Notes: a model not told the origin generated them from the letters alone. A stretch of 43,808 nt of DNA from Candidatus Jordarchaeia archaeon (GCA_029856435.1 JAHQXB010000170.1:1-43808), one strand, 5' to 3'. Positions 20,790-29,166 are shown, counted from the stretch's first letter. A program made the numbers and translations.

Positions 20790-23033
20790 TTAAACAAGAT
20801 AGCTCAAGCTGAGCTTCTCCCGCTTACCCATCAGCTTCTGCTGGATCTCCTCATACTGCTTAATCATCTCAGGAGTAATACTCGCAGTAACTCGAGTAAA
20901 TGCTTCCTCAAAGTGCTTCATGCTGACCTCCTTAACATCCCTGCCCCTCTCACGAATCGCAGCCATACCCGCATCACGGCACAAATTCTCCAAATCCGCA
21001 CCACTGAAACCCTCAGTCCTGTCAGCAAGCTTCTCCAACTTGACATCCTTCGCCAAAGGCATACCCCGCTCCACAGTATAAATCTCAAGAATCCTCAAAC
21101 GACTAGCACGATCCGGAGCAGGTACCAAAATTAAGCGGTCAAACCTGCCAGGGCGCAGAAGAGCAGGATCCACGAGGTCGGGACGATTCGTCGAAGCCAC
21201 ACAAACAACACCCTTAAGATCCTCAATACCATCCATCTCCACCAAAATCTGGTTCAAAACACTCTCATAAACACGAGTACCCTCCCAAGTACCACGACGA
21301 GGAGCCAAAGAATCCAACTCATCAAAATAAATAATCGCCGGCGCCGCACTACGAGCCTTCCTAAACACCTCACGAATAGCCTTCTCAGACTCACCAACCC
21401 ACTTGCTATATACCTCAGGTCCTTTTATTGATATAAAGTTTGCTTGTGACTCTGTGGCTACGGCTTTTGCTAAAAGTGTCTTTCCACATCCGGGTGGTCC
21501 GTGAAGTAGCACTCCTTTTGGTGGTCTTATTCCTACTTTTTTGAATGTTTCGGGGTATTTGAGTGGCCATTCTATTGCTTCTTTTAGTTCTTGTTTTATG
21601 TTTTCTAGTCCTCCTATTTGTTCCCATTTTACTGTGGGGATTTCGAGCATTACTTCTCTTAGGGATGAGGGGTGTACCATTTTTAGTGCTTCTTCGAAGT
21701 CGTTTTGGTCTACTATGAGTTTGTCTAAGGTTTCTTGGGGTATGGTTTCTTCTTCGAGGTTTATTTCGGGTAGTACTGTTCTTAGTCTGTGCATGGCGGC
21801 TTCTCGTGCTAGTGCTGCTAGGTCTGCTCCTACGAATCCGTGTGTGCGGTCTGCGAGTTCGTCTAGGTTTACGTTTTCTGCGAGGGGCATGGCTCTGGTA
21901 TGTACTTGAAGTATTTCTTTTCTGCCTTTTCTGTCTGGTATTCCTATTTCTATTTCTCTGTCGAATCTTCCAGGTCTTCTTAGTGCTGGGTCCAGGCTGT
22001 TGGGTCTGTTTGTGGCTCCTATTACTATGACTCTTCCCCTGCCTTTTAGTCCGTCCATTAGTGCTAGTAGTTGGGCTACTACTCTTCTCTCCACCTCTCC
22101 TGTTACTTCTTCGCGTTTTGGTGCTATGGAGTCCAGCTCGTCTATGAATATGATGGCAGGTGCATTTTTTTCGGCTTCTTCGAAGATTTCTCTTATTTTT
22201 GCTTCTGACTCTCCGTAGAATTTTGACATAATCTCGGGTCCGTTAAGTGATATGAAGTAGGCGTCGCTTTCATTTGCCACTGCTTTTGCTAATAGGGTCT
22301 TACCGCATCCTGGTGGTCCGTGGAGTAATACTCCTTTTGGGGGGTCTATTCCTAGTCTTTGGAATAGTTCGGGGTGTTTTAGTGGTAGTTCTATCATTTC
22401 TCTTACTCTGGTTATGGCTTCGTCTAGGCCGCCTATGTCGTCGTAGGTTACTAGGGGTACTGCTTTGGCTAGGGATACTGCTTCAGGTAGGAGGTCTATT
22501 TTTGTAGTTTCGGTTATTTGGACTATCCCTGTGGGGTTTGTTTGGGTTACTACTAGTCTTATTTCTCCGAGGGAGAAGGGTCTTGCTGGTCCGAAGAAGG
22601 GGAAGGCGTCTTCTCTTTGTCGTGGTATGGTTCCCATGATGCTTATGAGGTCACCTTTTGTTACTGGTCTGTTTAGGAGTGTTCCTTTTAGGGCTTCTTC
22701 GTTGGCTCGGAGTCTGCTTCCTTCTTCTGCAGGTGCTAGGACTACTTTGGTCGCGGGTTTTGTTTCTGCTTTTCTGACTTTTACGTATTCTCCTAGGCTG
22801 CTTCCGCTGTTTTGTCTGACTAGTCCGTCCATTCTTATTAGTCCGGTTCTTCGGTCTTCTGGAGGGCCGTACATTACGATGGCTCCGGTGCTTTTGTGTC
22901 CGTTTATTTCTATTATGTCGCCTGAGCTTACTTGTAGTTTGGCCATGGCGTCCGGGTCTACACGGACTATGCCTCTCCCAGCGCTTCGTCGGTCTATTTC
23001 AGCTACTTTTAATTCCACTTCTTGTTGTGGCAT
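20790..23033 (-). CDS. cdc48: Cdc48/VCP (p97/VAT-like) AAA+ ATPase
   Basis: N domain plus two AAA modules ([13 protein letters not shown] twice; Walker B FIDELD and YFDELD; RPGRFD twice). Confidence 0.97.
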
Positions 23034-23060
23034 TTTTTATAAATCCTCCTCGTGTTATCT

Positions 23061-23471
23061 TTATTCTTTATTTGTTTCTTTGATTGTGGTTTGCAGGCGT
23101 TTTAGAAGTCCGAATTCTTCATCTATGAAAGTTAGTAGGTTGGATATGGATTGTGTGAAGTGTATTAGCATTTCTTGGAATAGTTTGTCACCTTGGTTGG
23201 TTAGGAAGTATATGTGTCTTTCGGGTCCTCGTTCTCCTTGGGGGTGGTGGGATTCGCTTTTTATCCATCCTTCTTCTTGTAGGCGTTTTAGGAGGGGGTA
23301 TATTGTTCCTGGTTTGAGTTCTATTTTTCCGTCGCTTATTTGGTATGTTCTTTTTGAGATTTCTGCTCCATGCATTGATTCGGTTTTTATTAGTGCTAGT
23401 ACAATTAGCTCTAGTATTCCTCGGTTCATTTCTCGTATCCAGCATTGTAGTTTTCTTTGGAATTCGTCCAT
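23061..23471 (-). CDS. PadR-family transcriptional regulator
   Basis: RGILELIVL.L....MHG.EI, GTIYPLL.RL..EGWI and R.IY.LT..G motifs; it ends 27 bp upstream of cdc48 on the same strand. Confidence 0.92.
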   Translation of the reverse strand: MDEFQRKLQCWIREMNRGILELIVLALIKTESMHGAEISKRTYQISDGKIELKPGTIYPLLKRLQEEGWIKSESHHPQGERGPERHIYFLTNQGDKLFQEMLIHFTQSISNLLTFIDEEFGLLKRLQTTIKETNKE

Positions 23472-23521
23472 TTTTTTGAGCCTGCCTTAATTTTTGTTCG
23501 GATTTAGGTTATCAGCTATTG

Positions 23522-23566
23522 AATATATTGCATGACAATATATTGAGTGACTATATATAAGTTTTG
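23522..23566 (-). promoter_or_regulatory. padR-cdc48 promoter with a palindromic operator
   Basis: On the minus strand, CAAAAC-TTATATA (BRE/TATA-like, about 23554-23566) is followed by the perfect inverted repeat AATATATTG-CATGA-CAATATATT (23522-23544) over the expected start site. Confidence 0.55.
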
Positions 23567-27388: not shown

Positions 27389-27462
27389 GGTTTACCACCA
27401 TATTTACTTTCCTCAATAAATTCTTTACCTACAGTATTTATTAATCTTCGCAGAGAGGGTGT

Positions 27463-28221
27463 TCACCTTAAATTTTCGAGGCATTGGTTCACAATTTTAA
27501 TTTCAGATTCGCTGAGGTTGTCCTTAATTCTGTTAAATAACTGCGTAGACTTTGAATGGTCTCTACTGCAAATGGCTTTACTTAAAGCGGCCACGTCATA
27601 GTTTTCGTCTTTAATATTATTCTTACTGCATAGTTCAAGTGCTCTATCTGCTTTTTTAACTGCGTCATCAAAGTTTGATATTGCAAAGCTGCACATGGCG
27701 GCCCAGCTCAGATTTGCTGCGGCGTAACCGTAATCTTTTTCTTCTAGCAATATTTCGGCGTACTCTGAGTAGTTTTGGGCTGCCAACTCAAAACAGTTTT
27801 TGAACGAGTCGTAATGTGAAAGAGCTTTGTAGGCTATAGCTGAATCACTGTAGAGGAGGGCTGCAGATACAAGATTTCCAGCCATACTCATTTTCTCGCC
27901 TTGGTCAAAGTAGGTGGCAGCAGCTTCCTGCATGAGTTTTTCGAATTCAACCCTTTTTCCAAGGTTCTGGTAGCATAGAGCCATTTTTTCAGAATCCATC
28001 GCTGCGGAAACAGGGTAGTTTATCTTTTTATGGTGCTTATAAGCTTCGGTGTAACAATTAAGGGCTTTTTCATAATTTTTAAGTTTAAAATAGCAGTCTC
28101 CTGCTTCTCTCAGTTTATCTGCGGCTTTTTCAATATATTCTTGACCTGCAACGGTACCTGTAGCTTGAGACTCATAACTTCTTGCTTTGCTAAGCAAAGC
28201 TTCGCAATCCTTTTCACTCAA
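27463..28221 (-). CDS. alpha-SNAP-like helical repeat protein
   Basis: EALLSKA..IEKAA....AGD.....KNY..A......A..HH......SAA parallels the N-terminal repeats of eukaryotic alpha-SNAP (by-eye comparison). Confidence 0.7.
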   Translation of the reverse strand: MSEKDCEALLSKARSYESQATGTVAGQEYIEKAADKLREAGDCYFKLKNYEKALNCYTEAYKHHKKINYPVSAAMDSEKMALCYQNLGKRVEFEKLMQEAAATYFDQGEKMSMAGNLVSAALLYSDSAIAYKALSHYDSFKNCFELAAQNYSEYAEILLEEKDYGYAAANLSWAAMCSFAISNFDDAVKKADRALELCSKNNIKDENYDVAALSKAICSRDHSKSTQLFNRIKDNLSESEIKIVNQCLENLR

Positions 28222-28473
28222 AGCTTTCCCACCAAAAAGCTTTAAATTTACTAGGTTTAGCAGACTTATATTTTTTGAGGGAGTAAATAATTTGCGAATT
28301 TTAGTTTTCTGTTTGTTTTTACAGTTTTAATTTGTTTTTCCACTTTCCTTATTTTTCCTTTTCACTTATCCTTTCTGTTTTGATTTTAGTAATGAGGGGG
28401 AAGAAAAAACAATTCAATTATCACATTTTTGACTTATTTTTTTCTACTCATAGGGTAATATAAAAGGTTACTG

Positions 28474-29166
28474 TTAAAGTTTTATGTGTTTTTCATTTTT
28501 CTGGCTTTTGGCGATGTTGAAGCAGTTTTCAACAATGCGTACGTATTCAAAATATTCAGTTTCGCCTAGGTAGTCATTGGACAGCTTTTCTTGGAACTTT
28601 ACCCAGTGAGCCTGAGCCTTCCCTAATTTTCCGTTAATTAGGGCTCCACAAGTTTTTGCTAATTCTCGCCTCCAAATTCTAATTCTTTTTGTTTGGGCTA
28701 AATCCAAACTTTTTAGGGCGAGATTTTTAGCTAATTCTTTGTCGCCAAGGAGGAAACTGCAAAAAGAGGCCCAACTATATTCAGAGATGGCAGTTTCGAT
28801 TAAAGAAGTAGATTTTCTTCCTACATCTTGCCATTTGGCCATATTTTCTTCAGCTGCATCTATATGCATTTTTGCGGATTGTGACAAATTTTCCACGAAT
28901 TTGTTATTATTGCCGACTCCACGATAATAGGAAGCGAAGCCACTGTAAACTAGGGCCATATACTCTTTTTTGTCCAAGTGCTCATTTGCGACTTCCATAG
29001 CTTTATTATAACAATCAAGAGAATTTAGCAAGTCGCTGGACTCCCTGAAAAAACACCCTGCTCGAATATATCTCAGGAAGGCTCCAACAAAATCACCGCA
29101 CTTTGCGTGCTCTCTAGCATCATTCAAATATTCCAAAGCGGTCTTTTCAGCAATCATTGAAAGCAC
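28474..29166 (-). CDS. SNAP/TPR-like helical repeat protein, paralogue of the two neighbouring genes
   Basis: TPR-like CYNKAMEVA and YYRGVGN segments; the C-terminal SWASFCSF..D...A...A.KSL..G.LGKA..HW module is shared with its neighbours. Confidence 0.7.
   Translation of the reverse strand: MLSMIAEKTALEYLNDAREHAKCGDFVGAFLRYIRAGCFFRESSDLLNSLDCYNKAMEVANEHLDKKEYMALVYSGFASYYRGVGNNNKFVENLSQSAKMHIDAAEENMAKWQDVGRKSTSLIETAISEYSWASFCSFLLGDKELAKNLALKSLDLAQTKRIRIWRRELAKTCGALINGKLGKAQAHWVKFQEKLSNDYLGETEYFEYVRIVENCFNIAKSQKNEKHIKL

Follow-up and report, generated by a model that had tools for sequence, protein, structure and literature searches.

SNAP-like helical-repeat proteins encoded beside cdc48 in a Jordarchaeia archaeon: a narrowly distributed family of proposed scaffolds

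Background

How the NSF-SNAP-SNARE machinery arose is an unsolved problem of eukaryogenesis. Kienle et al. (2016, PMC5070193) place NSF in the expansion that the Cdc48 family underwent in eukaryotes, and in a 2026 preprint it is explicitly left open whether Heimdall SNAREs are taken apart by a Cdc48-like ATPase of archaea. In this study, we ask what is encoded by four helical-repeat genes, here called A, B, C and D, which lie beside a cdc48 gene in a stretch of 43,808 nucleotides (nt) from Candidatus Jordarchaeia archaeon (GCA_029856435.1 JAHQXB010000170.1:1-43808; this whole stretch is hereafter the window), and whether they form with cdc48, as the initial annotation had proposed, a Cdc48-SNAP module. 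A Cdc48-coupled SNAP-type adaptor in an Asgard archaeon would, if true, make an idea on the origin of the NSF-SNAP-SNARE machinery directly testable, and our literature search found no description of Asgard SNAP-like proteins or of archaeal SNAP-type Cdc48 adaptors. The evidence presented here establishes only that this lineage has helical-repeat proteins of SNAP type and that one of them, C, is unusually SNAP-like. We consider it somewhat more probable than otherwise that A to D are order-specific, paralogous and soluble alpha-solenoid scaffolds of the TPR clan with SNAP-type repeats, and that their adjacency to cdc48 is lineage-specific gene order; as it stands, they are an uncharacterised, narrowly distributed scaffold family.

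Results

Four related helical-repeat proteins

The genes in question, with protein lengths in amino acids (aa), are as follows.

20790-23033, minus strand: cdc48, full length, with CDC48_N, CDC48_2 and two AAA domains
23830-24786, plus strand: A, 318-aa helical-repeat protein, weakly SNAP-like, divergent from padR-cdc48, with the ACT gene downstream
26126-27388, minus strand: B, helical module, linker, PCI-like winged helix and zinc ribbon
27463-28221, minus strand: C, solenoid of 252 aa and 12 helices; of the four, the one closest to SNAP
28474-29166, minus strand: D, 230-aa paralogue of C, found in the window's own genus only

A, B, C and D are real, conserved and mutually related, and each has conserved orthologues. 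The C-terminal ~100 aa of C (residues 151-248) match the N-terminus of B at 36% identity (E-value (E) 8e-16), C and D match over this C-terminal module (E 5e-6), and the profiles of the C and A families align with an hhalign probability of 84% (E 7.6e-6). The presence of four helical-repeat genes within 6 kb of cdc48, as first annotated, is thus borne out by conserved open reading frames (ORFs) and, for A and C, by all-helical AlphaFold 2 (AF2) models. The model of C has 12 helices at a predicted local distance difference test score (pLDDT) of 96.9 and a predicted template modelling score of 0.92; that of A has 15 helices at a pLDDT of 80, its first 38 residues being unreliable. We take the ATG at 23830 as the start of A; the mechanical ORF begins at a TTG at 23797, but the orthologues are 313-326 aa long. 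None of the four proteins has a name in NCBIfam.

B consists, from its N-terminus, of a helical module of ~115 aa, a Pro/Glu/Thr-rich linker of ~185 aa (24% Pro), a PCI-like winged helix and a C-terminal zinc ribbon (Zn_Ribbon_1, E 5e-4). The winged helix scores 19.7 bits against PCI, below the cut-off of 22, and some orthologues of B carry the label PCI domain-containing; relatives of its C-terminal winged-helix/zinc-ribbon part were found in Freyarchaeia only. D is a genus-level duplicate of C, with orthologues of 74% identity at two loci of the same genus (L001 and L003) and none at the loci of the sister family.

Three further ORFs are related to these genes or lie among them. A stand-alone ORF of 111 aa on another contig of the same genome (G000 contig C55:34544-34864, minus strand), kept in same-genus genomes, is related as a paralogue, at 26-36% identity, to the ~100-residue helical module of B, C and D. 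At one locus of the sister family (L010), an ORF of 380 aa (11006-12148, plus strand) is inserted between the C and B orthologues, and its sole match is a weak one (25% identity) to contig C43 of the window's genome. The A orthologue of genome G070 (L009:1864-2556, plus strand) has 230 aa against 341-369 aa in its relatives, and may be truncated or frameshifted.

SNAP-likeness in sequence models

The Pfam SNAP family (PF14938) has a gathering cut-off of 25 bits, and the window proteins all fall below it (A 23.5, C 21.1 and B 13.1 bits; D no match). Across families, PF14938 is the only Pfam family matched by all 16 members of the A family (best E 2.7e-8), in which no TPR-named family was matched by A itself, and it is found in 13 of the 14 C-family members (best E 1.8e-11). 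The C family also matches TPR_12 (14/14) and, as sub-threshold leads, RPN7 (7/14, best E 5.9e-6). C combines a hairpin-array solenoid with one TPR repeat above threshold (TPR_2 at residues 37-63, 31.4 bits against a cut-off of 27), which places it in the TPR clan (CL0020); A, B and D share with that clan only the helix-pair solenoid.

PF14938 is a promiscuous model. Matches were obtained in 8 of 14 control prokaryote genomes, including those of E. coli and B. subtilis, and above the cut-off in 2; the window's genome has ~20 matches, among which the window proteins are some of the weakest. The Atlas holds many archaeal clusters with PF14938 (Thor-, Loki- and Bathyarchaeota, Methanobacteriota), thus SNAP-type repeats are widespread in archaea. 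The matches are moreover out of register: the N-terminal module of B pairs with the first half of the model, although it is homologous to the second half of C. Judged at the level of sequence, the Pfam SNAP matches are best described as repeat-type similarity, not global homology. Searched against PDB sequences, the C-family profile found generic TPR proteins only, driven by the single canonical repeat, with consensus TPR proteins as the best and no SNAP among the 60 matches listed; the C-terminal 189 aa of C alone gave no match at E <= 10, and the sole match of the A-family profile was gamma-SNAP at a non-significant E of 0.61.

SNAP-likeness in structure

Structural comparison places C, by small margins, closest to SNAP. 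In a Foldseek search against the PDB, ranks 1-20 for C were all Sec17/alpha-SNAP (E 1.7e-7 to 7e-6), followed by LGN (8.5e-6). An independent structural search against 48,161 representative chains put gamma-SNAP first (Z-score (Z) 14.4) and Sec17 fourth (Z 13.3), with an axonemal protein at Z 14.3, LGN at 12.6, CSN1 at 12.1 and a 19S lid subunit at 11.4 (root-mean-square deviation (rmsd) 6.9 Å), where a Z below ~13 is common among helical repeats. By language-model features, the Atlas clusters nearest to C were gamma-SNAP (0.95), SNAP (0.94) and alpha-SNAP (0.92). The motif string on which the initial annotation had based its SNAP comparison (IEKAA, AGD, KNY, HH, SAA) is indeed present at residues 30-74 of C. 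The SNAP-like character seen there thus holds in part: SNAP ranks first for C by three methods and Pfam SNAP recurs across the A and C families, but the margins over TPR proteins are 1-2 Z units, the model recurs in the control genomes as noted above, and C superposes poorly on SNAP, with a template modelling score (TM-score) of 0.33 and an rmsd of 13-15 Å. It fits regular solenoids far better, among them KLC1 (4.5 Å), BtubC (5.8 Å) and a designed toroid (4.3 Å). For A, Sec17, at Z 12.0-12.8 over the full length, had the best coverage but was tied with BamD (13.3), Rap, TONSOKU and LGN.

Two features of SNAP function were compared. Alpha-SNAP/Sec17 has a hydrophobic, membrane-inserting loop between helices 1 and 2. 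The corresponding loop of C, which joins the helices at 3-18 and 24-46, reads Q-A-T-G-T followed by an invariant V-A-G-Q-E; it is polar, lacks aromatic or bulky hydrophobic residues and is thus not a hydrophobic N-terminal loop of SNAP type. In A, the N-terminal 38 residues are of low confidence in the AF2 model. SNAP also has a conserved penultimate C-terminal Leu and an acidic tail that stimulates NSF. C of the window ends in -N-L-R, and 9 of 10 aligned same-genus members have L or F at the penultimate position; the four orthologues of the sister family have C-termini that differ in length and sequence, and the penultimate Leu is not kept there. Neither SNARE (PF05739) nor synaptobrevin (PF00957) was matched at E <= 0.1 in the genome, which is 3.54 Mb in size and 97.8% complete, although divergent SNARE-like proteins could escape these models.

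Distribution and gene order

The source names of close homologues point to the Asgard lineage Freyarchaeia/Jordarchaeia. Among 1.84 billion representative proteins, full-length relatives of C fall into just 2 clusters. A sample of 300 Asgard genomes yielded A and C in two families alone, the window's own (f1, 5/5 genomes) and its sister family (f2, 3/5), both of one order, Freyarchaeia/Jordarchaeia; f3, f8, f13 and f20 below are other Asgard families. The genes that surround A to D and cdc48 in the window are the following.

20081-20695, plus strand: gene for a membrane protein with four transmembrane segments (4-TM), convergent with cdc48; four hydrophobic segments by inspection
23061-23471, minus strand: padR-family regulator (PadR, E 7e-18), same-strand neighbour of cdc48, 27 nt upstream of it
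24973-25677, plus strand: ACT/DUF7523 gene (ACT_7, E 1.8e-12; DUF7523, E 1e-10), downstream of A
29854 onward, plus strand: argG and argH

The order argH-argG-[D]-C-B-ACT-A-[padR]-cdc48-(small membrane ORF) is kept in f1 and f2, between which C is 36-39%, Cdc48 76% and ArgG 75% identical. The conserved block includes argGH, which are surely unrelated to Cdc48, and its outer flanks differ between the two families. The f2 segment interrupts an L35Ae-GPN-PIN|AsnC-rpoB string that contig C115 of the window's genome carries without a break, therefore the argH...cdc48 segment moved as one unit; the f2 arrangement is a clean single translocation. Compared with G000:C115:24132-29748, the f2 loci L004, L008 and L010 carry the argH...cdc48 segment together with an F420-ligase gene between PIN and AsnC, which are adjacent in the window's genome.

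The ACT/DUF7523 gene has orthologues outside the order, at the following places.

L016:7341-8030: ACT/DUF7523 orthologue
L017:3917-4615: ACT/DUF7523 orthologue
L018:7595-8284: ACT/DUF7523 orthologue

In f3 and f8 these orthologues lie directly upstream of argG-argH, on the same strand and far from cdc48, thus ACT-argG-argH is the older order; the surroundings there are lysine/arginine genes, including DHDPS and homocitrate-synthase genes. The ACT domain is of the aspartokinase-type regulatory kind, and ACT/DUF7523 is probably an amino-acid-responsive regulator of the lysine/arginine pathway. In the Freyarchaeia/Jordarchaeia, ACT and argG are separated by D-C-B, which runs on the other strand, and A lies a short way upstream of ACT. 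A and ACT overlap by 8 nt or lie 7-14 nt apart in f2, thus forming an operon there; in the window they are 186 nt apart.

cdc48, its paralogues and its neighbours

The cdc48 gene belongs to the CDC48 family, with all its domains (TIGR01243, 1084 bits against a cut-off of 802.65), and is one of four full-length paralogues in the genome; the others (G000 contigs C109:6505-8643, C148:5517-7637 and C180:5432-7588) are 55-61% identical to it. Orthologues of the window type in f13, f3, f20 and f8 show 67-71% identity, above the paralogue level (<= 64%), and are flanked by nadA, rtcB, BFN-domain, PAS-hemerythrin, PP-loop ATPase, zf-AN1/M50 and geranylgeranyl-reductase-like genes; of all their neighbours, the window has only padR (f20) and the BFN gene (f13) in common with them. 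Synteny of cdc48 with SNAP-like genes across Asgard archaea, by which the initial annotation proposed to check its module, thus extends over f1 and f2 but not to these four families. The padR-cdc48 pair is a probable operon; the tandem recurs in f20 (L013:2688-5377) and not at the f2 loci, which suggests an old PadR-controlled cdc48 unit. A zinc-ribbon membrane protein beside the f20 cdc48 was considered as a relative of B and rejected, since only CxxC motifs are in common.

By gene layout, none of A to D is co-transcribed with cdc48. In the window, 358 nt with a copy of a mobile repeat lie between the divergent padR and A. No fitting Cdc48-binding motif of SHP or VIM type was seen in A and C in a look by eye, no formal search having been made. 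With ~11 PF14938-like loci and 4 cdc48 paralogues in 3.54 Mb, the chance of at least one such locus within 6 kb of a cdc48 is ~16%, and the proximity of A-D to cdc48 is by itself not beyond chance. The stronger PF14938-like loci of the genome are near none of the four cdc48 paralogues.

The 4-TM gene was rightly described as abutting the 3' end of cdc48: its end is 94 nt from the cdc48 stop, and its product has four hydrophobic segments, by inspection at about residues 40-62, 72-95, 136-158 and 170-191. The protein is 51-55% identical to same-genus counterparts, and in f2 a weakly similar small membrane ORF (23% over 96 aa, E 2e-5) occupies the matching position.

An interspersed repeat of ~108 nt has three copies in the window (23593-23700, 29331-29440 and 36205-36312), the copy at 23593 being the most diverged (~78%). 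Its copies between padR and A and between D and argG raised the idea of a shared regulatory element, which was rejected because ~100 copies at 90-98% identity are spread, mostly intergenic, across the contigs of the genome; it looks like an interspersed MITE/REP-like (miniature inverted-repeat transposable element/repetitive extragenic palindromic) element. A scan for promoters and terminators of bacterial type gave promoter counts equal to those of shuffled controls and is uninformative for an archaeon.

Discussion

Scaffold proteins of lineage-specific gene order, as which we read A to D on a somewhat better than even estimate, would have come about as follows. A to D would have arisen in, or been inserted into, the older ACT-argG-argH string, which would have come to adjoin padR-cdc48 in the ancestor of the order, and the whole segment would then have moved as a unit. 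D-C-B is predicted to be one transcription unit; the products of D, C and B may assemble via their shared ~100-residue module, B putatively tethering its winged-helix/zinc-ribbon head flexibly to the D/C scaffold, and the concave grooves of the solenoids may bind a protein ligand. A may act together with the ACT protein. Several points weigh against so modest a reading. For C, three methods rank SNAP, by small margins, above every other solved family, and SNAP works with a Cdc48-family ATPase, although this ranking leaves the Cdc48 question unaffected. The f1-f2 block holds 7-8 genes against 1-5 in neighbouring synteny blocks, a modest contrast that speaks for some cohesion, and in f2 A is divergent from cdc48 across 155-170 nt, compatible with co-regulation.

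It has been proposed, and we think it unlikely, that the Cdc48 next door is bound at its N-domain by C, A or both, in the way SNAP engages NSF, and receives from them substrate complexes for unfolding or disassembly. The full-length matches of C to Sec17, alpha-SNAP and gamma-SNAP in structure and language-model features, the Pfam SNAP matches across the A and C families, the divergent neighbourhood of A and cdc48, and an adjacency to cdc48 that f1 and f2 share despite different outer flanks are consistent with it. However, there is no operon with cdc48, the association is not visible outside one order, and the block equally holds argGH and ACT; C lies 13-15 Å from SNAP at a TM-score of 0.33, against 4-6 Å from regular solenoids, its helix-1/helix-2 loop is polar and no SNARE or synaptobrevin was found in the genome by the models used, PF14938 finds matches in bacteria too, and proximity by chance is a matter of ~16%. 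A more elaborate form, in which C, with A and D, would be a prokaryotic SNAP-type adaptor on the N-domain of the adjacent Cdc48, with B tethering its winged-helix/zinc-ribbon head, and thus a pre-SNARE archaeal forerunner of NSF-SNAP, is about as unlikely. The module first annotated at this locus is therefore weakened, not refuted, by the want of co-transcription, its restriction to one Asgard order, the unrelated neighbours of orthologous cdc48 genes, the older ACT-argG-argH order and the SNARE search. Genomic context gives no specific support for Cdc48 coupling, and points at least as strongly to the amino-acid-biosynthesis neighbourhood. That A, perhaps with D-C-B, senses or regulates arginine/lysine biosynthesis with the ACT protein, and not with Cdc48, is still unlikely, if slightly less so than the adaptor. 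Translational coupling of A and ACT, or their spacing of <=14 nt, in f2 argues for it, as do the aspartokinase regulatory type of ACT, its ancestral place as first gene of the ACT-argG-argH string, and the position of D-C-B exactly between ACT and argG; but D-C-B is on the strand opposite to both, the f3/f8 ACT orthologues function without any relative of A-D, TPR-like scaffolds have no established part in arginine regulation, and in the window 186 nt separate A from ACT.

A very improbable reading takes the solenoids and the winged helix of B as a split, primitive counterpart of the PCI subunits of Rpn7/CSN1 type that decorate a Cdc48-20S proteasome. Archaeal Cdc48 can serve as a proteasomal unfoldase, as is established; RPN7 matches occur in half of the C family, the structural matches of C include CSN1 and a 19S lid subunit, and the winged helix of B reaches 19.7 bits against PCI, some of its orthologues bearing that name. 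However, these matches lie under or close to their thresholds and rank level with other TPR proteins, the window showed no linkage to proteasome genes, and a PCI winged helix directly follows its repeats, where in B ~185 disordered residues intervene and the helix itself stays under the threshold.

Comparison with known systems

The PCI-domain subunits Rpn7, CSN1 and eIF3 (PF10602, PF01399) are similar to the present proteins in that helical repeats and a winged helix occur in one gene cluster, in the sub-threshold RPN7 and PCI matches, and in the presence of CSN1 and lid subunits among the structural matches of C. They differ in that winged helix and repeats are here in separate proteins or ~185 disordered residues apart, with a zinc ribbon appended, and in that the matches are not significant. 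Compared with the SNAP family (PF14938; PDB 1qqe, 2ifu, 3j96, 9cru, 9nlz), C has 12 helices instead of 14; the window proteins stand below the Pfam cut-off, the rigid-body fit is poor and, in C, the loop near the N-terminus is not hydrophobic; conservation of the C-terminal Leu does not extend across the order, the models used detected no SNARE, and no conserved context ties the genes to the ATPase. They share with SNAP an all-helical solenoid of similar size (252-318 aa here against ~290 aa), alanine-rich repeats of aromatic-di-alanine type and, here, a Cdc48-family ATPase gene next door, and C aligns collinearly with gamma-SNAP over the full length (C 1-252 to gamma-SNAP 3-275, 228 residues aligned). 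Canonical TPR scaffolds such as LGN/Pins, kinesin light chain, BamD and Rap (CL0020) differ in their 34-residue TPR consensus, matched here by one repeat of C and by no repeat of A, and share with these proteins the antiparallel helix-pair solenoid and, in C, one TPR_2 repeat.

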